Shown one piece after another: positions 1 to 12,686 of a DNA stretch of 12,686 bases. This DNA comes from a virus. The DNA lies in the UHGV virus genome UHGV-0143361; one strand, given 5' to 3'. The position numbers and the translations under genes were made by a program. Under the pieces are notes generated by a model, which saw only the letters and a program-made list of their open reading frames with translations, was not told where the DNA came from and searched no databases. How positions within the stretch are numbered: the stretch's first letter is position 1; every line of letters starts with the position of its first letter.

Positions 1-53
1 CCGGGGTCCGGCAGAATGTAGGTTGCGCTGGTCTGCGCCTGACGAATTTTCAT
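1..53 (-). CDS. Partial CDS, 5' end of the next phage head-morphogenesis gene (runs off the window)
   Basis: ATG at 51-53 on the minus strand overlaps the connector stop (ATGA coupling); frame reads MKIRQAQTSATYILPDP and stays open to the window edge. Function is inferred only from HK97-like gene order. Confidence 0.3.
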   Translation of the reverse strand, partial: MKIRQAQTSATYILPDP

Positions 54-373
54 AGTGGTATAAGGCGATAAGGAACAACCAACCAGTTAAAACTCATTGG
101 CAACTCCATTTTCTCAACGTCTGTAACCGTTGAGCGGTTTTCGTAGAAATGGCTGACAAGTAGCAGAAGCGCCAGCTTCACATCATCAGATATCACAAGC
201 CCATCAGGATCATCCGCAGGCCTGTCATCTGCGGTTGCATACAACTTACGGTTAAGGAAGTTTTCCGTACGACTCTGAGCGGCCTTACCAAGCAGTTCAA
301 GCAACTCATCTTCATCAGAGAAATCATCATCCAGACGGAGCTGAAGCTTAATCTCTTCCATTTTTAACAGCAT
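50..373 (-). CDS. Head-tail connector / DNA-packaging protein (HK97 gp6-like)
   Basis: ORF 50..418 trimmed to the ATG at 371-373, which has an AGGAGG Shine-Dalgarno 4 nt upstream. Product starts MLLKMEEIKLQLRLDDDFSDEDELLELL, acidic and about 108 aa, placed right after the major capsid gene as in HK97-type heads. Confidence 0.75.
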   Translation of the reverse strand: MLLKMEEIKLQLRLDDDFSDEDELLELLGKAAQSRTENFLNRKLYATADDRPADDPDGLVISDDVKLALLLLVSHFYENRSTVTDVEKMELPMSFNWLVVPYRLIPL

Positions 374-383
374 AAAACCTCCT

Positions 384-425
384 GTGCCCGCCAGAACGCG
401 GGCACAAAAAAACCGCATTACGCGG
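384..425 (-). promoter_or_regulatory. Structured intergenic region between capsid and connector genes: weak hairpin plus U7, then a perfect 8-bp hairpin
   Basis: Plus-strand GTGCCCGC-cagaac-GCGGGCAC at 384-405 is a perfect 8-bp stem with a 6-nt loop. On the minus-strand RNA a 4-bp CCGC/GCGG hairpin (413-425) is followed by seven U (406-412), then the strong hairpin, then the SD. Likely attenuator or mRNA-processing site after the highly expressed capsid gene. Confidence 0.4.
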
Positions 426-451
426 CGTGCTGTATTACGTAAAAAGACTAA

Positions 452-1681
452 TCAACCACCAACGCTACCTTTCCCCACCAGCGCTTTAATGGCAGAGGTG
501 TCTTCCAGGATACAGTCAAAACGATGGAAGGCCAGAAAACCGGTCTGATCATATTCCGCGTAACGCTCAACCAGACGTTTAAGAATCATGTATCGCACAC
601 GACGGATAATGAAGCGATCAAAGTCACCACAGAACATGAATTTTTTACCCGCCCCGATATCATCAATTTCCTGATCAATGACATACGGTACATTCAACAC
701 TGAAGCAGGTGCCACACCAACAATATCCGGCAACCATAAAGGGCGTCCCTGACCGTCTTCCATCTCACTGATCAGTTTCAGCGTATTATCGTTAAACGCC
801 AGGCGGAATTTCGGCCCGCGACGATATGCAGGATCAATGCTGTGTTTCAGAGCCAGAATTTCCTGCCACTTCACCGTATTTGCCGCGGCAGTCTGTGTTG
901 TGCCGGTCACAGATGCGACCAGCCCTTTGGGTTGTTTAGGCGTACCAGCACCAGTTCCCTGAATCAGATAACGGGCTTCACCACGACCAATACGTTCAGC
1001 AATACGACGGGCAAGATAAGCTTCCATATCGATCGCGCTGTCCTGCAGCAACTCATTAGACACACGAATGATTTTCGATGTCATTTTGAGCGCCCCAAGA
1101 CTTCCCATACCGAAATCGGTGTCTTCTTCACCGGCTTCTTCATTTTCGCCCAGCAGAACACCAACTTCGGAAGTACCATCAGCTGTTGCCCACTCCATAG
1201 TGCGACCGTCAGAAGTGGTAAGAATCTGCGCCACACTGGCGATGCCACCGTAGGACTTCATCTTCTCAACAACTTTCGCCAGGAATGTTTCTGGTACGGT
1301 ATATCCGCCCTTTTCATCCTGAGCTACGCCCTGGGCACGAAGTTCACGCAACGCCTTTCGTTCTTCTGATGTCAGCTCACTGGCACCGTGACGCATCCAC
1401 TTATCAAAAACCTGAGCTCGTTTCTCATCCTGTTGCGGATTGTTTTCCGGATCAAGATTCTGACGCTGCTCTTCCTCATTGCTTTCAATGTACGCCTGAT
1501 CCTGACGACGCAGTTCTTCTTCGCGTGCAATTCGTTCATCAAGCGCTTCCAGTTCGGATTTTGCTTTGTTCCACTCAGTGCGCTGCTCTTCCGTCCATGC
1601 GTTATCACCAATTTTTTCATTCAGGGCACGCATGTCAGTTGCGATAGTATTACGTTTCTGTTTCAGTTCATGCAGTTTCAT
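452..1681 (-). CDS. Major capsid protein, HK97 family, with N-terminal delta (scaffold) domain
   Basis: 409 aa; N-terminal 100+ residues are a charged coiled-coil (EELRRQDQAYIESNEEEQRQ...) followed by a capsid-like body. ATG at 1679-1681 has an AGGAAA SD. Sits directly after the prohead protease with no separate scaffold gene, the HK97 arrangement. Confidence 0.92.
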   Translation of the reverse strand: MKLHELKQKRNTIATDMRALNEKIGDNAWTEEQRTEWNKAKSELEALDERIAREEELRRQDQAYIESNEEEQRQNLDPENNPQQDEKRAQVFDKWMRHGASELTSEERKALRELRAQGVAQDEKGGYTVPETFLAKVVEKMKSYGGIASVAQILTTSDGRTMEWATADGTSEVGVLLGENEEAGEEDTDFGMGSLGALKMTSKIIRVSNELLQDSAIDMEAYLARRIAERIGRGEARYLIQGTGAGTPKQPKGLVASVTGTTQTAAANTVKWQEILALKHSIDPAYRRGPKFRLAFNDNTLKLISEMEDGQGRPLWLPDIVGVAPASVLNVPYVIDQEIDDIGAGKKFMFCGDFDRFIIRRVRYMILKRLVERYAEYDQTGFLAFHRFDCILEDTSAIKALVGKGSVGG

Positions 1682-1691
1682 GATGTTTCCT

Positions 1692-2294
1692 TTACGCGTT
1701 AAGAAGGGTCAGGACGCGCTCACGCGCCATACGTTGATTAATGGCTTTCTGTAGCGCGCCGCTGTTGCGCGCCTCCTGCCATGCTTTCATGGAGCGAACA
1801 GCCGAGTCAGCCTCCTGATAGGCAGGATATGTCACAGGACTGACATCCAGCAGACGGGAAAAGCGGGTTATCTCGCGAATAACAACCCCGTCCTCATCCT
1901 GATACCACTCCTCGCCGTCACGGGCGACACGGAAAGCAAAAGATGACTGGTTAATATCTCCACGTTGCATCGGGGCCAGCACCAGATCACGAATGGTCTG
2001 TGTCTCCGGAGCCTGGATGTCATAGCGCAATCCGCGCTCATCAACTGAAAGATTCAGCGTGCCTGCTGCACTACGCCCAAGAATAAAATTAGGATCGTGG
2101 TTAAACAGTGCGCGTACATCATCACCAAGCACATCGTCAAAAGCGCCGGGCCGGATGATTTCGCGGAATGAACCAAATATCAGCTCAGAACGACAGTCAA
2201 ACACCGATCCATAACCGATAATGTGCGCAGGGTTATCGTCATGCCGCTCAGCACGCACCTCACCGCTGTAACAACGGATTTCACGGTCATTCAT
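1692..2294 (-). CDS. Prohead maturation protease, HK97 family (S78 peptidase)
   Basis: ORF 1692..2351 trimmed to the ATG at 2292-2294 (MNDREIRCY...), which has a GAGGGA SD 7 nt upstream and overlaps the portal stop. Alternative starts exist at 2309 and 2351. Position between portal and capsid, about 200 aa, with protease-like HIIGYGSVFD and SSFAF segments. Confidence 0.85.
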   Translation of the reverse strand: MNDREIRCYSGEVRAERHDDNPAHIIGYGSVFDCRSELIFGSFREIIRPGAFDDVLGDDVRALFNHDPNFILGRSAAGTLNLSVDERGLRYDIQAPETQTIRDLVLAPMQRGDINQSSFAFRVARDGEEWYQDEDGVVIREITRFSRLLDVSPVTYPAYQEADSAVRSMKAWQEARNSGALQKAINQRMARERVLTLLNA

Positions 2295-3513
2295 TGGTTT
2301 TTCCCTCATCTTTTTTTGGGGGCTTAAAATCTCCTGCCGGGTTAGCAGCATTCACGCTTACCAGCATCTCATCCAGCCCTTCAACCGGATTCATATCCTC
2401 GAATGCGCGGGCCTCATTACGGCTCATCCATCCATCGGTAATAGCGAAGTGATAGAATTGCGCGCGCTCCTGCGGAGTTCCGCGTAAAAGCCCCGTCAGA
2501 TTGAACCTGACGTAATACCCGGCGGCTAACTCAGCGCGGGTAAACAAGCGACGGTTAAGCTCCTGCTCCCAGTTCGTCACCCACGGCATCATCGTGTAGC
2601 GGACAAACTGAATCGCCTGCGCAGAAATATTGGAGAAGGTGGCTTTTTCGAGGTCATTAATCATGTGCGCAGGAATATTGAAAATACCGGCAATCATTGA
2701 ACGGTTCAGTTTCATCATGTCAATGATCTGAGCGTCAACTGGCGACACAGTCAGTGCCTTGTAATCCAGATCGGCTGGCAGCAGCATGGTTTTGTTTTCC
2801 TGGCTGCGTAACGCCTGCGATGCCTTCTGCCACTGATCTTTAAGCCAGCCCCAGCTGTCCTTATTGAGTCCGCTTTTAACGGATACTATCCCCGCCGGAC
2901 GGGCATTACCGCTGAAGAAGCTTTCTGTGTATTTCTGACCGCTCATCCCCATGCCTATTGTTTCGGCATGTTGCATAATCGGACTCAGCCCCATCTTCTG
3001 ATTATTACCCAGCGCACGGATGTGGATCATATCGTCGGGGCTGATCGCAAACGCCCCATATTCGTTGTACAAACCGTAGGTGTATCGGCCACCAGTATTC
3101 ATCAGCGTCGTTTCCCACGGCATACAGCAATCCAGGGATATGACTTCACCGCGACGATTACGTTTCACCCAGGTATACCCATTCCCCCAGCCAAGGATGT
3201 GACGTTGCTTCAGTTCGCGCCATTTGTAACTGGTTTGCCAGGTATTGGGCTCATCATGAACCAGATAAAACGCCGGATGATCGCGTGCGGGCTCAACCTT
3301 CCCATTGTGCCTGCGCATAACATGCAACGGCATCTGGGCAAGGCTGGAAGACAGGACATAGATACAGGAATACACCGCAGCCAGTTTCATCGCAGTTTCA
3401 GGACTGACATAAACGTCTGCCCGGAACAGCCCATCAGTATCAACGGCATCCCCGGTTATCGGGGTGGAAGGATTCTCCAGTGATTTACTTCTGAACAGAG
3501 CATCAAGCAGCAC
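2287..3513 (-). CDS. Portal protein, HK97 family
   Basis: 408 aa between terminase large subunit and protease. The start as given in the ORF track is a GTG at 3511-3513; the exact start is uncertain. Confidence 0.9.
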   Translation of the reverse strand: MLLDALFRSKSLENPSTPITGDAVDTDGLFRADVYVSPETAMKLAAVYSCIYVLSSSLAQMPLHVMRRHNGKVEPARDHPAFYLVHDEPNTWQTSYKWRELKQRHILGWGNGYTWVKRNRRGEVISLDCCMPWETTLMNTGGRYTYGLYNEYGAFAISPDDMIHIRALGNNQKMGLSPIMQHAETIGMGMSGQKYTESFFSGNARPAGIVSVKSGLNKDSWGWLKDQWQKASQALRSQENKTMLLPADLDYKALTVSPVDAQIIDMMKLNRSMIAGIFNIPAHMINDLEKATFSNISAQAIQFVRYTMMPWVTNWEQELNRRLFTRAELAAGYYVRFNLTGLLRGTPQERAQFYHFAITDGWMSRNEARAFEDMNPVEGLDEMLVSVNAANPAGDFKPPKKDEGKTNE

Positions 3514-3664
3514 GCGTCCCCCTTCTGGCCATAGCCAGTGCGCCCACCAGCAGTAAACCGCCGGACAGCATCAGAGCCGGAGCCATACCAAACTGCAGGT
3601 AAAACCCGCACGTAAGCAGGCCAAAACCAGCCAACCCGATAACATCAGCAATTAGTGATTTCAT
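3503..3664 (-). CDS. Small hydrophobic ORF (53 aa), putative membrane peptide between terL and portal
   Basis: My own translation: [53 protein letters not shown]. Its ATG (3662-3664) overlaps the terL stop (3661-3663) as ATGA, and its 3' end overlaps the portal GTG start. It is missing from the ORF track only because it is under 60 aa. Confidence 0.3.
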
Positions 3665-5394
3665 AGAATTAAGAGAACATCGTCCGGATCAAGAGATGAG
3701 AGGAAATCGTCGGGTTCTTTGAGCATTGCCCGACCGATCGCCATAATCAGTGCAACCGCACCATCGATTTTGTTTTCCGCCTGCTCCTTGACAGGCTTCA
3801 CCACATCATCGTTACCCGGAATGGTTTTGCCGACCACGTTGCCGATACACCAGGTCATGATGGGATTGCCATCATGATGAAAGCGCCCCGATTCAATTGC
3901 CGCTTCCAGCTCTTTCATCGGGTCGGACATGTTGGTGTAGTTCTGAATGATGGTGATGGGGTTCAGGTCTTCATCAGCAAGGTCATGCGACAGCCCGGTC
4001 GCCCCGAAGGGGTCGATGGGTGACTCACTGACCGGGCTGATTTTGTTCGCCGCTTTGGCCTCCTCGAGGATGTAGCGATAATCCACCTCCGCACCAGCGG
4101 TAACAGTCAGAACGCCCATTTCCACCCATTTCTGAAAGCGTTCGGCTGTCCGGCGATCTTCATTTTTCTCGACGCTGTACACCGTGTCATACGGTACCCA
4201 GAAACGCGGGGCCACACTGTAGTAATGCGTTTTACCGTCAATCTCGCGGGTATAAAGTCGCGCCATGCTGTTCATATCCAGCTTACGCGCCAGGTCAAAG
4301 GCCAGAATGCACGGCTGCCCCTCGAACTGCTCAAGGGTCAGTGATTTATCCTCGCAGCTCTGCCAGCTCACCAGGTTGAAATACGCCGAACGCGCCGACA
4401 CCCAGATATTGAGGTGTTTTGTTTTAAAGACGTTTGCCAGACGGGCGTTATTTTTCGCACGCTGTTGCTGACTTAACAAAAACTCACGGTAAACCGACAC
4501 CCCGATATTCGGGTTGGCTTTTTCCAGCACCTGTGGGTTGGTCCAGTCGTCACCTTCGTCAACGGTATAGATGATCCCGAACAGTTCATCGTTGGGTACC
4601 GAACCGTTGAGCATCTCGATAACTTCCCGCCGCTTGTCGTAGCACGGCCCCTCAATGTTGTACCCGGCGGTGGTGATGGCCCACATCAGTGGCTGACGTC
4701 GCGCCCCCATCCCGGTAAGCATCGTGGTATAAAGCGCATCGGTGGCGTGCTCGTGATATTCATCCACCACCGCACAGTGGGGTGATGATCCATCACCGGG
4801 GTTACCGATCAGCGGTTCAAACCGCGCGCCATCCTCCGGACGGTTCATGTTTGAGGCGTTAACCTCAATCCCGAACGCTTCCGTCAGCATGGGTGTGCGT
4901 TTACACATCAGTCGCGCCGGGCGAAAGACTTCCCACGCCTGTTTCTCTGTCGTGGCACCGGAATACACTTCCGCGCCAAACTCGTTATCACAGGCAAAAC
5001 AATACAGGGCGACACCGGCAGAGATTGCCGATTTGCCGTTCTTACGGGGGATTTCGGTATACACCTCCCGGAAGCGGCGCAGCCGGGTACCTTTATTGAC
5101 CCAGCCAAACGCACAGCAGATCACAAAGAGCTGCCACGGCTCCAGCGTGATGGGCATCCGTTTGAATGCCCACTCACCCTTGGTATGCGGCAACAGCTGA
5201 ATAAATTTGGCGGCCCGTTCAGCCAGGTCCTTGTCGAAGCGGTAACGAAACGACTTACTTTTTTCCGCCATCAGGTCATCAAGATGGCGCTGGCAGGCCT
5301 GAATCACAAACTGGCAGGCCACAATCTTTCCCCGCACGACATCACGGGCATACTGATTGGCAGCATTTACGTTGGGGTAAGATTTCCGGCTCAT
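3661..5394 (-). CDS. terL: Terminase large subunit
   Basis: 577 aa with ATG at 5392-5394, lying between terS and portal. Family recognised from the overall sequence (ATPase-like N-terminal half, nuclease-like C-terminal half). Confidence 0.93.
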
Positions 5395-5407
5395 GATTCG
5401 ATGATTT

Positions 5408-5893
5408 TCAGATTGTCAGAAACGGGTTAGTGGCTTTCTTCTTCCCCGCCAGGCCAATCAGACGCTGGCGGCTGCTGGGGTCGAGTCCGAGCATTGCCCC
5501 CGTGCTGCTCATCTCGGACTCCTGTTCTTTTTTGGCGGTCAGCTCCGGATTTTTGACCATGCCGCCCATTGCACCGGTGATGGTGTTGCCCTGTCTGGCA
5601 ATATTTTTCACGGCACGTCGCCAGAATTCATAGGCCACACACCACCGCTCAAGTACCGCCAGGTCAGTCACGCACAGCAGGCCCTGACCGCAGAGTTCTT
5701 TGGTTGTCAGTTGCCACATGATCGTGGCGAGAGGGAGATCTTCTTCTGCGAACCACTCCGGTGGCTCAACACCTTTGATGGGCGTAAAAACAGGTTCATC
5801 TTTATTCAGGGCTCGCTTGCCGGGGTTTCCGGCCAGCGCCTTGCGCGCCGTTGGCTTGGGGCGACGCCCGGAACGCCCCGCCGTTCCAGCCAT
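5408..5893 (-). CDS. terS: Terminase small subunit, P27 family
   Basis: ORF 5408..5902 trimmed to the ATG at 5891-5893 ([14 protein letters not shown]...), with AGGAG 8 nt upstream; the track's GTG start overlaps that SD. Carries the GNPGKR motif typical of P27-family small terminases and sits immediately upstream of terL. Confidence 0.85.
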
Positions 5894-5902
5894 ATGCGGC
5901 AC

Positions 5903-6018
5903 TCCTGGTTAAATTTCATTTTTCGCGGGTATAAAAAAACGATGGGGCGGGCAGTCCGGAAGACGTCAGGTCACAGGGATTTGACCCGCCCCTCCCCTCA
6001 GACAGTTGAGAATTATTA
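5903..6018 (-). other. Candidate cos / packaging-recognition region with terminator-like structure
   Basis: A 116-bp non-coding gap between HNH and terS. GGGGCGGG (5944-5951) and CCCGCCCC (5986-5993) form an 8-bp GC inverted repeat, with a nested GGTCA/TGACC pair and the palindromes GACGTC and TCCGGA inside, followed on the minus strand by seven U (5933-5939). In HK97-like phages cos lies between the HNH gene and terS. Confidence 0.35.
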
Positions 6019-6369
6019 TCACTTTAACCGTTCACGGGCCGTCTTCGCCTTATGACACGGCCAGCACAGACTCTGCAGATTACTGTCGGCATCAGTGCCG
6101 CCATGCGCTTTAGGAACGATGTGGTCAACGGTTTTCGCCTCACGCACCACACCAGCATGCAGACATGACTGACATAAACCTTTGTCACGCTTCAGGACGC
6201 GCTCGCGGATACCGTCCCACTTCGAACCATAACCGCGCTGATGACGGGACTGGCCCGGCTTGTATTGCTTCCAGCCTTCGCCTTTGTGGCTTTCGCAATA
6301 GCCTGACGGGTCTGTGGTTGTAGAGCGGCAGCCGCGAACACGGCAGGCTTTTGGGATTCGTGGTGGCAT
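6019..6369 (-). CDS. HNH endonuclease, packaging-associated
   Basis: ORF 6019..6432 trimmed to the ATG at 6367-6369 (MPPRIPKACRVRGC...), with an AAGAGGA SD upstream. Has CxxC and CxxH zinc-binding pairs and a DHIVPKAHGG...N...LCWPCH HNH motif. Location directly upstream of cos-terS matches the HK97-type HNH that assists terminase. Confidence 0.85.
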   Translation of the reverse strand: MPPRIPKACRVRGCRSTTTDPSGYCESHKGEGWKQYKPGQSRHQRGYGSKWDGIRERVLKRDKGLCQSCLHAGVVREAKTVDHIVPKAHGGTDADSNLQSLCWPCHKAKTARERLK

Positions 6370-6519
6370 TGCATAATCCTCTTGGATGGTTCGCGTGCGA
6401 TACGTGGCATCCTTCTCAGAATCGAATCGCACTCCACTCCGGTTTTGCCATAAACGATCTTTTATGCTTCGCTGGATGTAGTTGATAGTTGTTGAAACTC
6501 AATGAACAGGAGTTCACAA

Positions 6520-6855
6520 ATGAATAGTTATGAATGGGAATGGCTTTTAAACAAAGATGACACCCTATGCTTTTTCCCCGTAGGCCATTCTGTAGAAGGT
6601 AATTACAAAATTCACTTTGAGTTGAGCGGTAGTTGTAACCTTAGAGTCTCAGATGCTGAATGGCATGGTAAACCTGTACTGCTGTTCGAATACTTCGATG
6701 AAGATGATGACCGCCCTGCAATAATCGAAATATTAGAAACAACTACTACAACTGTGGAGGCGATGATCGGGCATCTGAATAGTATCGATAGTATTTACCA
6801 TGAACCGATTTACAAAGCGGTTTACGAGTGGGCCGTAAAGTTTTTCTATCGATGA
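6520..6855 (+). CDS. Hypothetical protein, about 111 aa, acidic (cargo gene 1)
   Basis: ORF 6502..6855 trimmed to the ATG at 6520, which has AGGAG 7 nt upstream. Plus strand, opposite to the phage operons, and visibly AT-rich. Contains an acidic stretch (EYFDEDDDRP) and a TTTT run. No family recognised by eye. Confidence 0.55.
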   Translation: MNSYEWEWLLNKDDTLCFFPVGHSVEGNYKIHFELSGSCNLRVSDAEWHGKPVLLFEYFDEDDDRPAIIEILETTTTTVEAMIGHLNSIDSIYHEPIYKAVYEWAVKFFYR

Positions 6856-6955
6856 TACTTCGTTATCTTGCTGGCATTCACAATACCTTTACATACTAAT
6901 GACATGCCAGCACAATACTGTCACTTACAACCGTTCGGATTACCTAGAGAAAAGT

Positions 6956-7525
6956 ATGATTCAGGATTTACTGATCGAAGCAATTAGTCACGATAGGATG
7001 CATAAAAAGTTAAATGAACTGAATTGCTACTTCTACAATCGCAAACATGAAACTCAAATACGTGATGAGTTAGTTGTTATTCTCAATCAAATCAGCACAC
7101 TAACTGCTTTAAGTGAGCATCCAAAACTCGGTATCGGCGCTGTTGACATATCACTTTATAACCAGTCGATATTAACGTCTGAACATAATGGCAATGTTGC
7201 AACCATCGAGATCAAACACCATTACCCAAAGGATTTACTTTATCGGCAAGTTCAAGAAGACATCATTTCCGATATTTCAAGAGTAATAGTTTCACCAACT
7301 ACACATTTTATCCATATAATCCAGCAAAGAACTATGATTAATACTCCTTCTTTTGGCCAAGTGAAATTCCTTGAACGTGATGCAAGTGATATCAGCACTT
7401 ATGTGCAATGCCTTGAAGAGCTAAGTTCCTTCCCCAGTATCTTTCATAAAAAAAGTATATGTATTGAGGTACTTGGTGAAATTATGTCGACATATACCTT
7501 TAACGTATATTCATTTGACAACTGA
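6956..7525 (+). CDS. Hypothetical protein, about 189 aa, weak PD-(D/E)xK-like pattern (cargo gene 2)
   Basis: ORF 6899..7525; start is either the ATG at 6899 (no SD) or the ATG at 6956 (A/G-rich leader), so the 5' end is uncertain. Co-directional with cargo gene 1 and AT-rich. The pair GAVDIS ... ATIEIKHH gives a D...E-x-K spacing compatible with a PD-(D/E)xK nuclease core; this is inference only. Confidence 0.5.
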   Translation: MIQDLLIEAISHDRMHKKLNELNCYFYNRKHETQIRDELVVILNQISTLTALSEHPKLGIGAVDISLYNQSILTSEHNGNVATIEIKHHYPKDLLYRQVQEDIISDISRVIVSPTTHFIHIIQQRTMINTPSFGQVKFLERDASDISTYVQCLEELSSFPSIFHKKSICIEVLGEIMSTYTFNVYSFDN

Positions 7526-7546
7526 TTAATTTGACAATTTTATTGC

Positions 7547-7804
7547 TTAATGGTTAGTTCTCTCTGCATCTATTTTACGAATATCAGCTTTATCCCGATT
7601 GCAGTTAGCCAGTGCAGACAACAGACTCACATTCAGCTCCAGGCTGGCACCATAAGTCAGAGGATTTGGTATGAACGGTACAGGTGTTTCAGAAGTCAGA
7701 CTAGTCGGTAATGTTGTAGCCGGAGTGCTCACGTAAACTGTCCGCGTACTTCCGCAACCGCTCAGCAGCGGCAGCAGGCACAAGGCGTGCAGCACAACCA
7801 TCAT
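7547..7804 (-). CDS. Rz1: o-spanin (Rz1-like outer-membrane lipoprotein)
   Basis: ORF 7547..7870 trimmed to the MM start at 7804. Signal peptide with lipobox LLSGC followed by a Pro/Thr-rich mature region (PATTLPTSLTSETPVPFIPNPL). Starts in an alternate frame inside Rz and extends 154 nt past the Rz stop. Confidence 0.7.
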   Translation of the reverse strand: MMVVLHALCLLPLLSGCGSTRTVYVSTPATTLPTSLTSETPVPFIPNPLTYGASLELNVSLLSALANCNRDKADIRKIDAERTNH

Positions 7805-8081
7805 CCGCAACAGCCACTTTGATATCTTTCTGGGTTCTCTGTGACTCCAGTGCGATCTGCTGTTTTGCATGCTGGTTAACCTCTATAACTGTATTGACGA
7901 TTTGCAGTGATTGCAGGACGTTACGGGTAATGGCTGTTGCAGATTCAGCATTTTGTACAGCCTCATCAGCACGTTTCTTTTCGTGCTGATATTTGCTGTA
8001 GTAGTGGTTGGCAGACCAGATGAAAGAACCGATGACAGTAAAGAAGAATGCAGCGATAACCAGCTTATAGCTCAACTTCAT
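7701..8081 (-). CDS. Rz: i-spanin (Rz-like)
   Basis: 126 aa with an N-terminal TM anchor (LVIAAFFFTVIGSFIW) and a charged helical periplasmic domain. Its ATG (8079-8081) overlaps the endolysin 3' end, the usual lysis-cassette position. Confidence 0.8.
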   Translation of the reverse strand: MKLSYKLVIAAFFFTVIGSFIWSANHYYSKYQHEKKRADEAVQNAESATAITRNVLQSLQIVNTVIEVNQHAKQQIALESQRTQKDIKVAVADDGCAARLVPAAAAERLRKYADSLREHSGYNITD

Positions 8082-8541
8082 TTACCACCCCACCAGCCTC
8101 TTTAAATCGGGCAATCAGGTCACCGATTTTATGTTCATACTGACCGTAACCTGCACCAGGTAACGACGCCCAGATATTGCTGCAACGGTCGATAGCCTGA
8201 CGAATATCACCGCGATCAATCATCGGTAAAGCGCCACGCTCTTTAATCTGCTGCAATGCCACTGCGTCCTGGCTTTTGGGGGAGAAGTCTTTCAAACCAA
8301 GCTGTTTACGGTAAGCATCCCACCAGCGTGAAAGAAGCTGATAACGCCCGGCGGCTGTTGATTTGAGTTTTGGGTTTAGCGTGACAAGTTTGCGAGGGTG
8401 ATCGGAGTAATCAGTGAAGAGTTCACCACCGACAATAACGTCATAACCGTGGTTACGTGTCGGTTGTCGTCCGTTATCCGTTCCTTCTGACCAAGCCACC
8501 ATATCAAGGAAAGCTTTACGCTGGGAATTTAGTACCTGCAT
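8065..8541 (-). CDS. R: Endolysin, lambda R-like lytic transglycosylase
   Basis: 158 aa. From memory it is near-identical over most of its length to phage lambda R (RKAFLDM.AWSEGTDNGRQ.TRNHGYDVIVGGELFTDYSDHPRKLVTLNPKLKST.AGRYQLLSRWWDAYRKQLGLKDFSPKSQDAVALQQIKERGALPMIDRGDIRQAIDRCSNIWASLPGAGYGQ). GGAG SD 7 nt upstream of the ATG at 8539-8541. Confidence 0.95.
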   Translation of the reverse strand: MQVLNSQRKAFLDMVAWSEGTDNGRQPTRNHGYDVIVGGELFTDYSDHPRKLVTLNPKLKSTAAGRYQLLSRWWDAYRKQLGLKDFSPKSQDAVALQQIKERGALPMIDRGDIRQAIDRCSNIWASLPGAGYGQYEHKIGDLIARFKEAGGVVNEVEL

Positions 8542-8544
8542 AAA

Positions 8545-8871
8545 TTACTCCTTAGAGCCACCAAATTTGTTACCGATTACTCGCATTGCAGCCCCACGAA
8601 TAGCATCGACACCGATCAACCCAACACCACCACCAATGGCAACAGAAAGCGATTTAGGCCATCCGACATACTCAAGAGCGGATGCAAAAGTCAGCGTCAG
8701 AGCGCCACAGAGTAGAATTTCGAGCGTTTTTCGCTTCCAGCCACCACCACCGCCAAAATAGGCGATGCGCAAACCAGCCATAACGATCGACATAATCACT
8801 GCACCCAGCGGTGTGTCTCCACGCCACCAGCTCTGGACCAAGTCCAGCCAGGTATTTGGGTTATGAGGCAT
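8545..8871 (-). CDS. Holin (three predicted hydrophobic segments)
   Basis: ORF 8545..8967 trimmed to the ATG at 8869-8871 (MPHNPNTWLD...). The track's GTG start lies inside the upstream terminator hairpin and overlaps the methyltransferase gene. Three hydrophobic stretches and a charged C-terminus, placed immediately upstream of the endolysin. Confidence 0.7.
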   Translation of the reverse strand: MPHNPNTWLDLVQSWWRGDTPLGAVIMSIVMAGLRIAYFGGGGGWKRKTLEILLCGALTLTFASALEYVGWPKSLSVAIGGGVGLIGVDAIRGAAMRVIGNKFGGSKE

Positions 8872-8914
8872 TTCGTCATCTCTCACCTCGCGATATTTGC
8901 GGGTGCTGTGTTGG

Positions 8915-8940
8915 AAATAAAAAGGCCACGCAACGTGGCC
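8915..8940 (-). terminator. Intrinsic terminator between the methyltransferase and holin genes (tR'-like position)
   Basis: Perfect 7-bp stem GGCCACG/CGTGGCC with a 3-nt loop (8924-8940), followed on the minus strand by UUUUUAUUU (8915-8923). Lies between the MTase stop (8948) and the holin ATG (8871). Confidence 0.6.
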
Positions 8941-8947
8941 ACCAGAA

Positions 8948-10000
8948 TTATTTCCCCACCAGTTCACTTACCTCTTTCACCGTCTGATTAAACCGCTCTG
9001 ACTCAAGTTCAACACCTAACGCCCGACGTCCCAGCGCCATTGCTGCTTTTATTGTGGAACCGGATCCCATAAAAAAATCAGCAACCAGATCACCTGGTCG
9101 ACTACTGGCATTGATTATTTGCCGGAGCATATCCGCAGGCTTCTCACACGGATGTTTACCCGGGTAGAACTGAACGGGTTTATGCGTCCAGACGTCGGTA
9201 TAAGGCACGGAAACTGATACGGAGAAATAGCGCCGGAGAGTTTTAAACTCATCCAGCAATTCAGAATATTTGCGATTCAGTGAATCATAAGATGCCACCA
9301 GCTGGTGGTGTGGTTGTTCCAGTTGTTGTTCCTGAAACTTCTCTGCCGCTATACGGGAAAACAGTGCCTGTAACTTCCGATAGTCAGCCTCATTCGGCAA
9401 CTGCCACTGACTGGCACCAAACCAGTGGGAAACCATATTTTTCTTACCTGTGGCTTCGGCAATTTGTTTTGCCGTTATACCCAGTTCGGCACGAGCATCC
9501 CTGAAATACGATATCAGCGGTGCCATTATGTGCTGTTTGAGTTCCCTTTCTTTTGCCGCATAGCCGTCACTTTTGCCGCGATATGGCCCCTGGTAATGTT
9601 CAGCAAACAGAACGCGCTCTGTGGCAGGAAAATATGCGCGCAGACTTTCTTTATTACACCCATTCCAACGTCCGGACGGCTTCGCCCAGATGATATTGTT
9701 AAGCACGTTGAAACGTTCACGCATCATGATCTCAATATCAGATGCCAGGCGATGCCCACAGAACAGGTAAAGGCTTCCGGCAGGTTTCAACACCCGCCAG
9801 AACTGGGCCAGACAGTGGTCCAGCCACTTAAGGTAATCTTCGTCCCCTTTCCACTGATTGTCCCAACCGTTGGGTTTCACCTTGAAGTAAGGCGGATCGG
9901 TAACAATCAGGTCAATGGAATCATCAGGCAGGGACTGAATAAAATGCAGGCAATCAGCGTTGATTAAATCAACACTGTTTATTTTTACAGTATTTTTCAT
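8948..10000 (-). CDS. DNA methyltransferase, beta-class amino-MTase (N6-adenine or N4-cytosine), apparently orphan
   Basis: 350 aa. Motif IV DPPY near the N-terminus (IVTDPPYF) and motif I FxGxG near the C-terminus (DFFMGSGST), the permuted order that defines beta-class amino-methyltransferases. No restriction endonuclease gene is adjacent. Confidence 0.9.
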   Translation of the reverse strand: MKNTVKINSVDLINADCLHFIQSLPDDSIDLIVTDPPYFKVKPNGWDNQWKGDEDYLKWLDHCLAQFWRVLKPAGSLYLFCGHRLASDIEIMMRERFNVLNNIIWAKPSGRWNGCNKESLRAYFPATERVLFAEHYQGPYRGKSDGYAAKERELKQHIMAPLISYFRDARAELGITAKQIAEATGKKNMVSHWFGASQWQLPNEADYRKLQALFSRIAAEKFQEQQLEQPHHQLVASYDSLNRKYSELLDEFKTLRRYFSVSVSVPYTDVWTHKPVQFYPGKHPCEKPADMLRQIINASSRPGDLVADFFMGSGSTIKAAMALGRRALGVELESERFNQTVKEVSELVGK

Positions 10001-10150
10001 GGATCAGTAAGCGTAACTCTGGTAGGCTCACTCTGCTTTTGCGCTAAAGCAGTGGGCCGTGGTTCGCTTGTGACCAGTAGGCATGAGCGAATGGCTGGCA
10101 GGTGCTACCAACACCCACCAGCCGCCCATTTTCACAGCAGGAAACCGCCA

Positions 10151-10354
10151 TTACTGGCAGCGTCTGAATTTATTCCCGTACCCGCCGTTATCCTTCGCCA
10201 GACCCGCCAGAACTAACTGAGTCAGTATTAACTGGCACCGGGCTTCGCTTACTCCGGTAGTTCTCGTCATCATGCGTGGCGTTACCCACTTGTCAGCAGG
10301 TAAGAAATGAAGGACTGCGGCGGCGGTTTCTGTCATATCTTGCTGTTTTAGCAT
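10151..10354 (-). CDS. Small putative winged-helix DNA-binding protein (67-75 aa)
   Basis: ORF 10151..10378; I favour the ATG at 10352-10354, which has an AAGGGA SD, over the track start. Size and the AAVLHFL...TGVSEARCQLILTQLVLAGLA pattern resemble small PapI/FaeA-like wHTH regulators. Family assignment is a recollection, not a search result. Confidence 0.45.
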   Translation of the reverse strand: MLKQQDMTETAAAVLHFLPADKWVTPRMMTRTTGVSEARCQLILTQLVLAGLAKDNGGYGNKFRRCQ

Positions 10355-10476
10355 GTCTTTTTCCCTTCTGGTTAACATGACATACCAATAACTCTTGTCT
10401 AAAAAGCCAGCAAGATAAAAAGTCAGTATTCACGACCACCAGCGTGTTTACTGTGCTGCACCAAGTTTACAGGTAC

Positions 10477-10501
10477 AAAAAAACCGCTCAGCGGCGGGTT
10501 T
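10477..10501. promoter_or_regulatory. Weak hairpin flanked by an A7 run and a T-run in a divergent intergenic region
   Basis: AAAAAAA-CCGC-tca-GCGG-CGGGTTT: a 4-bp GC stem with A7 on one side and T3 on the other. On the minus strand it reads hairpin plus U7, so it could be a weak terminator or attenuator. It sits in the 295-bp gap between the wHTH gene and the 339-aa gene. Confidence 0.25.
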
Positions 10502-10673
10502 AAGTTGTGTGGCGAAGTAACCACTCTTAACACAGTAATCTAGAAAATGCGGACCGCGTTAGTGATTTTTATCTGTTTTTCCATTATTTTTTTGCCACAC
10601 AGCTTAAAACGAAAAATAAAGCAGGCGTTGCCAAACCTCACGGTGACAGTTGGCTTAGAATGAGGACATATTT

Positions 10674-11693
10674 TTGGATAAGTTTGATGAGATTCATGTA
10701 GACATTGAATCTGAGCAGCAAGCCTTCGATTTGCTTGAAAGCTATCTTGATGGTTATGGTTTACCTGACAGTTTAAGTTTCAACGGATGGCCAAACCTTA
10801 CCATCAGATTAACCGGTGAAAAATTCAACAGATCGCTAACACCTTCAGTTATGAAGGGATTTGTTGAAATGCAAGCTCAAATCAACAAATCATATGCCCT
10901 TGCCAAGTACGGTGTCCCTGACGTCCGCAAACTGACCAAAGAAGAACTTGATGCCCTAGAAATAGAAGTTACGGTAGAACAGGGTTCTTCAATAGTAGAA
11001 ATCAACATTGATGGCTTTTTAACCAAACTCACACAGGAACTTGTTGGTAAAATGAACGCAACTGAGATCATGTTTACTGTTCTCGGCGCAGCAGTCATCT
11101 GGGGCGGAGTAACAGTATTTAAACGGTTCTTGGACAACCGTAAAGATATTCGCCTTGCAGAAATTGCTAAGGATGGAGAGAAAGAACATCTCCGGACTAT
11201 GCAGATCATGAGCGAGCAAGAAACTAAACGCCTGCGGGTTATTTCAGAAATGATTGCGGAAAAACCACTTCTCGATAACATGGACCGTATGTCGTATGAC
11301 GCTAAAACCCAAATGGTCAAATCCTTTGTGCGTTCAGATAACGCTCAAATTGATGGCGTTACTATTGATTCTGAAATGGCGAAAGAGTTGGTTACGAATG
11401 CTCGTAGACGTTCATCAGAAATGAGGATTGATGGTATTTACCGAATTGAAGAAGTCAATAATACTGACCCAGAGAGTTTCAAAGTTAAGGTCCGACGCGT
11501 AGATACCGACCAACGTCTAACCTGCGTAGTTCAGGATGTTTTCCTTGATGAATCCGGAAACAAAGAAGCATTGCAGCGAGCTGAGTGGGAAAGAAAGCCT
11601 GTACATTTGAGCATTAACGCAAAACACGTCGATGGTGACATTAAGTCAGCAGTAATTCTCTATGTTCGAGATGTGGAACAAAAGCCCGAGTAA
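10674..11693 (+). CDS. Hypothetical single-pass membrane protein, 339 aa (cargo gene, TTG start)
   Basis: Only in-frame start after the upstream stop is TTG at 10674, with GAGGA 7 nt upstream. One clear TM helix (IMFTVLGAAVIWGGVTVF, about residues 133-150) followed by KRFLDNRKDIR, and a charged, helix-rich C-terminal domain of about 190 aa. Plus strand, AT-rich, convergent with Q. No family recognised. Confidence 0.6.
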   Translation: MDKFDEIHVDIESEQQAFDLLESYLDGYGLPDSLSFNGWPNLTIRLTGEKFNRSLTPSVMKGFVEMQAQINKSYALAKYGVPDVRKLTKEELDALEIEVTVEQGSSIVEINIDGFLTKLTQELVGKMNATEIMFTVLGAAVIWGGVTVFKRFLDNRKDIRLAEIAKDGEKEHLRTMQIMSEQETKRLRVISEMIAEKPLLDNMDRMSYDAKTQMVKSFVRSDNAQIDGVTIDSEMAKELVTNARRRSSEMRIDGIYRIEEVNNTDPESFKVKVRRVDTDQRLTCVVQDVFLDESGNKEALQRAEWERKPVHLSINAKHVDGDIKSAVILYVRDVEQKPE

Positions 11694-11699
11694 TCGGGC
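11677..11699 (-). terminator. Intrinsic terminator downstream of Q, possibly bidirectional (shared with the convergent 339-aa gene)
   Basis: 6-bp stem GCCCGA/TCGGGC with a 4-nt loop (11684-11699); the TAA stop of the 339-aa gene lies in the loop. On the minus strand the hairpin is followed by UUUUGUU (11677-11683); on the plus strand it is followed by a U-rich UUCAAUAAUC. Confidence 0.5.
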
Positions 11700-11707
11700 T
11701 TCAATAA

Positions 11708-12085
11708 TCAATCTTTAATTTCGGGGTCCATCTCTAGACTAATTTCCAGCATCGATAGGCAGCCATCAATAAACCCCTCAGCCATCTGTATCTCAATGCG
11801 TATTAGTTTCTCATCCTTTTTACGAGCCTTGGCGAGCTTTCTTTTAGAGATACCGTATAGGTAATGGGCAACAAGAAGCGAATGTTCGTCCGGCCTTTTT
11901 TGCCTTAGACGAGCAAGACAACCTTCAATAATTAATGCATCACTATCTGAACATGCCTGACGTGTTTTGCTTGTATAGGGAAGAAGCCCTTTAAACCCAG
12001 CAGCTATAGGAGAATAGTCTACTCCTGAACTATCACTCGCCGCCCATGCTCCCCAACGATCCAGAACCATTTGAATATCACGCAT
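11708..12085 (-). CDS. Q: Late-gene antiterminator Q (Phage_antitermQ family, QuuQ/QuuD-like)
   Basis: ORF 11708..12100 trimmed to the ATG at 12083-12085 (MRDIQMVLDRWGAWAA...), with a GGAGA SD 7 nt upstream. The N-terminus MRDIQMVL.RWGAWAA...IAAGFKGL matches my recollection of E. coli prophage Q homologues; about 125 aa. Confidence 0.85.
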   Translation of the reverse strand: MRDIQMVLDRWGAWAASDSSGVDYSPIAAGFKGLLPYTSKTRQACSDSDALIIEGCLARLRQKRPDEHSLLVAHYLYGISKRKLAKARKKDEKLIRIEIQMAEGFIDGCLSMLEISLEMDPEIKD

Positions 12086-12102
12086 CAACTTTCTCCACAA
12101 AA

Positions 12103-12230
12103 TCAGGCCAGCACGCCAATTGCCAGCGCACGATCGATAAAACGAAATATCAGCTCCAGCTGAGAGCCATACTTTTCTTCAAATACCACGGTATCCGCAT
12201 GCAGCTCGTCGTGATGCTTTCTGCACAAAG
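12103..12230 (-). pseudogene. 3' fragment of a phage gene upstream of Q, truncated at the junction
   Basis: A minus-strand frame ends ...TVVFEEKYGSQLELIFRFIDRALAIGVLA* at 12103-12105, 17 nt before the Q start, in operon-like spacing with E. coli-like codons (CTG, CGT, GCG). It has no start because the sequence upstream of about 12230 is antisense to rimO. Confidence 0.3.
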
Positions 12231-12231
12231 G

Positions 12232-12636
12232 CAGCACGAAGAGGTCATGCGCTTTGTAGATGAGATGGAGTTCGAGCGTCTTGGCGTATTTACCTACTCA
12301 GCAGAGGAAGATACTCCGGCGGCAGATTTCCCGGATCAGATCCCGGAGGAGGTGAAGGAGGAGCGCCGCGACGAGATCATGGAGCTCCAGCAGGAAATTG
12401 CCTTTGAAAAGTCCGAATCCATGGTAGGACGAGTTCTGGATGTTATGATCGAGGGCAAGGTGGCTGACGAAGCTGCTTATGTGGGAAGAACCTACATGGA
12501 TGCCCCGAATGTAGATGGATATATCTTTGTTAACAGTGGTGAACTCTTTATGTCCGGTGATTTTGTCCGGGTGAAGGTCACTGGTTCCAATGACTATGAT
12601 CTGATCGGGGAGGTATACGATGAATCTGCCGAATAA
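12232..12636 (+). pseudogene. rimO: rimO (ribosomal protein S12 methylthiotransferase) 3' fragment with TRAM domain, 5'-truncated
   Basis: The C-terminal part of ORF 12046..12636 reads ...FERLGVFTYSAEEDTPAADFPDQIPEEVKEERRDEIMELQQEIAFEK...GRTYMDAPNVDGYIFVN...VRVKVTG..YDLIGEV, matching the RimO/MiaB C-terminus. The conserved GFPGET radical-SAM segment expected just upstream is absent in all frames. Codons (GAG, AAG, ATC, CTC) differ from the phage genes. Confidence 0.7.
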
Positions 12637-12686
12637 ACTGACCGTGCTGCGGGTGATCATGATCCCGTTTTTTGTAGCTGCACTTC
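12620..12686 (+). CDS. pgsA: CDP-diacylglycerol--glycerol-3-phosphate 3-phosphatidyltransferase (PgsA), 5' partial, runs off the window
   Basis: ATG at 12620 with a strong GGGGAGG SD 6 nt upstream, overlapping the rimO stop. Reads MNLPNKLTVLRVIMIPFFVAAL, a PgsA-like N-terminus. The rimO-pgsA adjacency is typical of Firmicutes. Confidence 0.6.
   Translation, partial: MNLPNKLTVLRVIMIPFFVAAL

Follow-up and report, generated by a model that had tools for sequence, protein, structure and literature searches.

The virus genome UHGV-0143361, analyzed here as a single stretch of 12,686 nucleotides (the window), consists mostly of phage DNA and ends in parts of two bacterial genes, rimO and pgsA. RimO is the ribosomal protein S12 methylthiotransferase, and PgsA is the CDP-diacylglycerol-glycerol-3-phosphate 3-phosphatidyltransferase. 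The question raised by this arrangement is whether phage and bacterial genes were joined in a living cell or were brought together in some other way. The initial annotation of the window had named three options, a chimeric assembly, a contamination join, and an engineered concatenation, and had favored these over natural integration.

The Escherichia coli prophage and the first change of parent

The left side of the window is an ordinary E. coli prophage. Positions 1-12258 were collinear in one piece with the prophages of E. coli YZB902/HE302 (97.7% identity), and in a megablast search of 5,426 complete E. coli genomes positions 11000 to ~12258 were 99.9% identical to many strains. No match continued past ~12258 in any of these complete genomes, and nothing to the right of ~12259 matched them even in a sensitive blastn search with positions 12200-12686. 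In a base-by-base alignment with E. coli ECONIH1, identity continued without a gap to 12255 and then collapsed. The junction is therefore as abrupt as the initial annotation had described it, with 99.9% E. coli identity to 12255 and nothing beyond ~12259.

The junction interrupts the prophage midway. Past the breakpoint, intact E. coli prophages continue through DUF968, KilA-N, RusA, methylase, replication genes, and repressor/immunity genes before they reach the integrase, which in the YZB902 prophage is ~9 kb beyond the breakpoint. Because the prophage extends ~9 kb to the integrase in E. coli, the junction is not an att site. It had been suggested that the phage side, next to the antiterminator gene Q, was also cut inside a gene. 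This was confirmed, with the specification that the cut gene is a DUF968 gene and that Q itself is intact (Table 1). The native DUF968 gene is 990 nt long and is complete in an E. coli locus (L001, positions 4104-5093). The lysis cassette of the phage was annotated as containing an Rz1-like LysC lipoprotein gene and a DUF2570 gene. Such genes imply a host with an outer membrane.

Table 1. Positions of the parental segments, common words, and genes in the window
Feature	Position	Strand	Description
E. coli prophage segment (parent 1)	1..12255		head, terminase, lysis, methyltransferase, Q, 3' end of DUF968 gene
Phage antiterminator Q, intact	11708..12088	-	Pfam Phage_antitermQ 2e-52; E. coli annotation 'antiterminator Q family protein'
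DUF968 gene 3' fragment, last 51 of 329 codons	12103..12255	-	Pfam DUF968 2.8e-21, profile positions 125-171 of 171
Junction 1, exact 21-mer CACGAAGAGGTCATGCGCTTT	12235..12255	.	native to E. coli prophage and to Lachnospiraceae rimO
rimO 3' part, residues ~317-449 and stop, parent A	12235..12636	+	TRAM domain only; radical-SAM part missing
Shine-Dalgarno sequence GGGGAGG of pgsA	12607..12613	+	read directly from the sequence
pgsA 5' start, 22 codons	12620..12686	+	first 19 codons common with parent A; end is parent B
Junction 2, exact 25-mer GTGATCATGATCCCGTTTTTTGTAG	12653..12677	.	common to parents A and B, homologous place in pgsA
First 9 parent B-specific bases	12678..12686	+	parent B runs on for 3.7 kb in the source contig

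The change of parent falls inside a single word, the 21-mer CACGAAGAGGTCATGCGCTTT. Identity to E. coli extends rightward to 12255, and identity to two Lachnospiraceae loci (L002 and L003) extends leftward to 12235; the two tracts thus overlap by exactly 21 bases. Mismatches lie directly outside the 21-mer on both sides, and the word is found once in the window; the opposite end of the prophage is outside both the window and the source contig. The genes that meet in it are nonhomologous, with the DUF968 gene in antisense and rimO in sense. No word of the junction zone with a length of at least 11 nt recurs in the window, and the annotation that no integrase or att-like element is present at this edge was correct.

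The join appears to be unique to one contig. A 48-mer spanning the junction had no matches in IMG/VR or in JGI metagenome contigs, and thus the junction has no independent occurrence in these collections. Reading through the junction from the ATG at 12199 gives a chimeric open reading frame of 145 amino acids, MQLVVMLSAQRQ followed directly by HEEVMRF…, in which the first 12 residues come from the E. coli DUF968 gene read in antisense. This reading frame was recorded on one contig only, and the longest chimeric reading frame (196 amino acids from the ATG at 12046) was not on record in a protein look-up. Other members of the 145-aa protein cluster were considered as possible recurrences of the junction and were rejected, because their N termini are those of native RimO. 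Two of them, P0002 and P0007, have the native upstream sequence MISGFPGETQED in front of HEEVMRF, and P0007 represents the same rimO allele as the window, with its native upstream sequence, on another contig.

The Lachnospiraceae genes and the second change of parent

When the 126-residue RimO fragment was searched against one genome per bacterial species, it was 99% identical in protein sequence to the RimO of two Lachnospiraceae-type genomes, L003 (Clostridium sp. AF27-2AA) and L002. Identity to L003 at the DNA level was 424 of 431 positions over 12256-12686 and 99.8% over 12235-12677 (443 nt), reaching leftward without gaps as far as 12235. Separate taxonomic searches of the two sides, which had been proposed along with the initial annotation, therefore gave E. 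coli on the left and Lachnospiraceae on the right.

The bacterial genes on the right side of the window come from a conserved and unremarkable Lachnospiraceae locus, the RimO-PgsA gene pair. In native contigs the gene order is guanylate kinase (gmk), rpoZ, rimO, pgsA, and cinA, and rimO is intact in L003, L098, and L099. The C-terminal, TRAM-containing part of RimO had been recognized from the sequence, and this assignment was upheld by a Pfam TRAM_2 match on 12232-12633(+) (3.1e-22; 79 bits versus a cut-off of 27). The start that had been assigned to it, 12232, was not; Lachnospiraceae DNA begins at 12235 and is unambiguous from 12256. In L003, rimO is a complete gene of 449 amino acids (positions 2032-3381), from which it follows that the window has residues ~317-449 and lacks the 316 N-terminal residues, in accordance with the earlier view that rimO is cut in the middle of its reading frame. 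With the cut at residue ~317, the rimO reading frame of the window lacks the N-terminal UPF0004 domain and the radical-SAM domain; both domains would be expected in the native 449-aa L003 gene. A rimO without them is a gene fragment, and thus the window has no functional rimO.

The overlapping pgsA start with a GGGGAGG Shine-Dalgarno sequence was likewise found as annotated. The ATG at 12620 follows the Shine-Dalgarno sequence after a 6-nt spacer, and the reading frame overlaps the rimO stop codon at 12634-12636. The 22 N-terminal PgsA residues match positions 1-22 of CDP-OH_P_transf (9e-5; 23.3 bits versus a cut-off of 22). The native pgsA of L003 encodes 180 amino acids and overlaps rimO by 17 nt; the window preserves both this overlap and the Shine-Dalgarno sequence. 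The source contig from which the window derives, described below, has a complete 180-aa pgsA that carries PF01066. Unlike the native gene pair, the window is limited to 133 codons at the 3' end of rimO and 22 codons at the 5' end of pgsA, and its pgsA start is a hybrid of two species.

Base composition contributed little to the distinction between the two sides. The codon usage contrast that had been pointed out has the stated direction, with AAG at 4/4 versus 29%, ATC at 5/6 versus 42%, and GAG at 60% versus 48% on the bacterial and phage sides, respectively, but not the stated strength, since 126 codons are too few. There was no GC contrast, with 0.51 on both sides.

The hybrid nature of pgsA results from a second change of parent, which falls inside the 25-mer GTGATCATGATCCCGTTTTTTGTAG, 443 bases after the first. 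The last nine bases of the window disagree with L003. When the source contig was followed rightward, identity to parent A was 100% to 12677 and 35-85% thereafter, and the best match past the switch was a different member of the Lachnospiraceae, L064 (Clostridium sp. AM30-24), at 88%. A scan of metagenomes with the string just right of the switch recovered 14 contigs, half of which (L084-L087, L090, L095, and L096) were 100% identical from 12653 to at least 13100. One of these, L090 (OOCY01000111.1; 87.5 kb), was 100% identical over the window-equivalent positions 12653-16369, a tract of 3,717 nt that runs to the end of the contig. Over 12256-12652 the same seven contigs were just 70-75% identical. 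The native parent A contigs (L003 and L098-L101) had the mirror-image pattern and were identical to 12677. With the second switch at 12653-12677, the last nine window bases come from a third genome.

Two simpler readings of the second switch were rejected. The sequence around it is not native parent B sequence, because identity to the seven parent B contigs drops to 70-75% in the 443-nt piece. Nor do the last nine bases represent an error at a contig tip or strain variation, because they open a 3.7-kb tract that is 100% identical to a different species. The contig is therefore a three-part mosaic, composed of the E. coli prophage, 443 nt of Lachnospiraceae species A, and 3.7 kb of Lachnospiraceae species B.

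The switch from A to B at 12677/12678 recurred in L089 and in L094, two further contigs of low coverage (1.17x for L094). Because of this recurrence, the second junction could in principle be a natural recombinant allele; a recurrent artefact is the likelier of the two possibilities. The recurrence leaves the first junction unaffected.

Neither the exact 21-nt word at the first switch nor the second parent switch at 12653-12677 had been part of the initial annotation.

The source contig and the proposed origin of the joins

The window agreed with contig NODE_1135_length_16371_cov_5.751471 of ENA ERZ505402 without a mismatch in the 10,488 bases that could be compared, with window position 1 corresponding to contig position 3. 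The contig has 16,371 nt and a k-mer coverage of 5.75, and its name follows the SPAdes naming convention. The record of the contig includes the entry 'samples_with_this_contig: 2', which might reflect a duplicate deposition or a second sample. If there were two independent samples, then the join was made twice, an outcome to be expected where the same organisms occur together and the assembler is deterministic.

The lengths of the common words are informative with respect to the assembler. metaSPAdes employs k values of 21, 33, and 55, and the smallest k of MEGAHIT is also 21 (PMC8611953). Chimeric contigs arise from graphs that are linked by common k-mers, together with low abundance (PMC7299287). 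Both words at which the parent changes (21 and 25 nt) have a length of at least 21 and less than 33, which fits the 21/33/55 ladder of metaSPAdes, the assembler to which the contig name points.

Words of this length can be common to unrelated genomes. In a comparison of a 36-kb E. coli prophage with 480 kb of Lachnospiraceae loci, common k-mers were ~2-3 times as frequent as the uniform expectation (22 observed versus 8 expected at k=16 and 5 versus 2 at k=17), in a count that left out the ascertained 21-mer itself. Extrapolated to whole genomes, with assumed sizes of 5 Mb and 3.5 Mb, these numbers correspond to roughly 10-25 common 21-mers per genome pair, and by the same extrapolation an entire community would contain far more words common by chance than any one pair. 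Chance sharing of such words is to be expected.

Judged from these sequence comparisons, the junction is almost certainly an artefact that arose in silico, when a de Bruijn-graph assembler misassembled a gut metagenome at low coverage. A change of source genome within a word that is common to both genomes indicates that the junction is not a biological one. In this misassembly, three unrelated genomes of the sample, those of the E. coli prophage, species A (near Clostridium sp. AF27-2AA), and species B (near Clostridium sp. AM30-24), would have been threaded together because each neighboring pair has an exact word in common whose length equals or exceeds the smallest k of the assembly. By chance, E. 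coli and species A have 21 nt in common, and species A and B have 25 nt in common in the conserved N terminus of pgsA. At k=21, each common word would collapse into a single node of the graph, entered by two paths and left by two. At ~6x coverage, gaps would be likely to interrupt the true continuations, which are the rest of the DUF968 gene on one side and the upstream part of rimO on the other, and the interrupted continuations might then have been deleted as tips or low-coverage edges. The unbranched path that remained would have been output as a contig. This contig could have been retained when k was raised to 33 and then to 55, uncontradicted by reads, with reads spanning the junction presumably absent.

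The contig has the features of the chimeras that multi-k de Bruijn assemblers such as metaSPAdes and MEGAHIT generate. Its parents belong to different taxa and are represented at ~100% identity, the switch is inside an exact common word whose length equals or exceeds the smallest k, coverage is low, the name is in SPAdes style, and one switch is between species in a conserved gene. Most of the chimeras that have been discussed join close strains or species, as the second junction does. The first junction is of a rarer, cross-phylum type, in that it joins two phyla by a purely chance 21-mer in nonhomologous genes.

Among the three options in the initial annotation, the evidence supports chimeric assembly. 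The preference expressed there for chimeric assembly over natural integration was well founded; at 99-100% nucleotide identity, the two sides have their best matches in different phyla, the junction interrupts a prophage midway, and the bacterial piece measures 443 nt before the contig changes to another species. Biologically, the window offers neither a new element nor an integration site nor a gene fusion.

Alternative explanations and practical consequences

One alternative is that hybrid DNA was formed in vitro, by PCR template switching or ligation during library preparation, and that the hybrid fragment was then faithfully assembled. At a coverage of 5.75x one chimeric read pair could bridge two contigs. 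Furthermore, template switching prefers common sequence, and a 21-nt identity could prime it. However, an in vitro chimera does not predict two switches within 443 nt, each in an exact common word of 21-32 nt. This pattern is a requirement of a k=21 graph, unlike the pattern of random library chimeras, which usually have little or no microhomology. For any given pair of fragments, a 21-nt chance identity at which template switching could occur would also be very rare; in a graph, by contrast, all such words are merged automatically. In addition, the switch from A to B recurs in other assemblies. A library chimera is therefore very improbable as the source of the join.

Concatenation after assembly, whether through scaffolding, contig merging, an error in database processing, or the construction of a synthetic test sequence, is more doubtful still and merits hardly any credence. 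It was among the options of the initial annotation, and the start of the window at contig position 3 indicates that some trimming occurred. However, the contig as deposited at ENA contains the complete junction, and it has a native SPAdes NODE name with a stated length that agrees. Concatenation end to end would not place the switch inside words that are native to both parents, and there are no Ns and no linker at the join. The picture does not look like either end-to-end contamination or an engineered concatenation.

It is also exceedingly unlikely that the join between the E. coli prophage and Lachnospiraceae DNA is a real interphylum hybrid that was produced by microhomology-mediated recombination at the 21-mer. 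Such a hybrid might arise, for example, if a Lachnospiraceae cell took up E. coli phage DNA, or through extracellular or transduced DNA. Microhomology-mediated joining does exist, and both organisms dwell in the gut. However, natural illegitimate recombination or horizontal transfer, as an account of hybrid DNA present in the gut, would need genomes to be joined twice in succession within 443 nt, each time at a word that equals or exceeds the assembler k in length. It would truncate three genes (DUF968, rimO, and the hybrid pgsA) and yield no selectable product, and just one contig, at ~6x coverage, would bear witness to it. The parental sequences are 99.8-100% identical to intact genomes, and thus they have not diverged since the time at which the hybrid would have formed. 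Illegitimate recombination or transfer as such has practically no chance of being the explanation.

Genuine site-specific integration, with the 21-mer as the att core and the phage in rimO of a Lachnospiraceae host, is scarcely conceivable. The layout formally resembles an attL or attR junction of a prophage, in that phage DNA and an incomplete bacterial gene meet at a short word that is identical in both. Unlike the boundary at such a site, the boundary here is within the coding sequence of a phage gene, DUF968, distant from the integrase, and it joins a phage and a 'host' of different phyla. The same phage DNA is present at 99.9% identity as prophages, integrated elsewhere, in thousands of E. 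coli genomes, and the LysC and DUF2570 genes point to an outer membrane in the host. The supposed host flank is a mere 443-nt fragment of species A followed by species B, the edge has neither an integrase nor a repeat, and the junction was absent from all other collections searched. For practical purposes, the second switch and the mid-prophage position refute site-specific integration.

Misassembly of this kind has consequences for the use of public data. The contig provides a clean, base-resolved example of a public metagenome contig in which an E. coli prophage is fused to Firmicutes genes. Pipelines for host prediction, for the detection of horizontal transfer, or for the identification of phage 'auxiliary genes' would read it as a phage with rimO and pgsA or as a Lachnospiraceae prophage, and the chimeric 145-aa reading frame is already present in protein catalogues. 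P0014, L089, and L094 suggest that contigs of this class are not uncommon. A simple screen for such cases would be to search low-coverage SPAdes contigs for exact words of 21-32 nt within which the best-hit taxon switches.

Recurrence of the pgsA switch and other chimeric joins

The change within pgsA from parent A (a Lachnospiraceae species near Clostridium sp. AF27-2AA) to parent B (a relative of Clostridium sp. AM30-24) was also found in two other contigs, OLJA01012002.1 and UESP01015091.1. In both, compared over the equivalent of window positions 12554-12942, sequence of the parent A type gave way to sequence of the parent B type at 12677/12678, as in the source contig. UESP01015091.1, which is NODE_15091 with a coverage of 1.17, has an additional switch near 12595. 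Either assemblies of low-coverage gut metagenomes make this join repeatedly, or the pgsA allele in these contigs is a natural recombinant.

A further protein of the RimO cluster (P0014) is encoded by an ORF outside the window, on a 4,666-nt ENA contig. Its N terminus is PurT/ATP-grasp-like (…HHPDIIVPEIEAI) and is joined to RimO at …IEAIRTEEKVCHYLD. This protein is the product of another chimeric ORF. The case speaks against k-mer chimeras being rare in these public assemblies.

Three plus-strand ORFs in the phage region

A low-GC island spans window positions 6400-7600, where the GC fraction is 0.34-0.41, versus 0.50-0.58 in the flanks. Its two ORFs, oriented opposite to the neighboring phage genes, have the HNH/terminase genes on one side and the lysis cassette on the other. 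Searches of both ORFs against Pfam and with PADLOC returned no match, and their E. coli counterparts are annotated as hypothetical. Together, the two ORFs resemble an accessory ("moron") cassette that the phage has acquired.

The third ORF, between Q and the late genes and on the opposite strand, has a GC fraction of ca. 0.41 and is 99.9% conserved across many E. coli prophages. Its best Pfam score was below threshold (FNIII-A_GpJ, 18.6 bits versus a cutoff of 27), and a PADLOC search with it gave no match.

The three plus-strand ORFs of the phage region and their PHROG assignments
Window position	Strand	Length (aa)	PHROG
6502-6855	plus	117	phrog_14397
6899-7525	plus	208	phrog_12494
10674-11693	plus	339	phrog_6191 (unknown function)

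Source contig, taxon labels, and CinA forms

The source contig is 16,371 nt long. Its position 3 corresponds to window position 1, and 3.7 kb of it lie beyond the window end. The window is thus a sub-range of the contig rather than the whole record.

Two records from the species-representative genome set, CAVIRL010000148.1 (L004, labeled Prevotella sp. P5-108) and L005 (labeled uncultured Selenomonadales), encode RimO C termini that are 96 to 98% identical to the Lachnospiraceae-type fragment. Their labels name phyla or orders other than that of Lachnospiraceae, and they are probably mis-binned contigs or come from mislabeled bins.

The CinA homologue of parent B (locus L083, 10964-11698) has 244 aa and only the CinA_KH and CinA domains; that of parent A (native contig L098, 4899-6146) is the 415-aa form with an N-terminal MoCF_biosynth domain.
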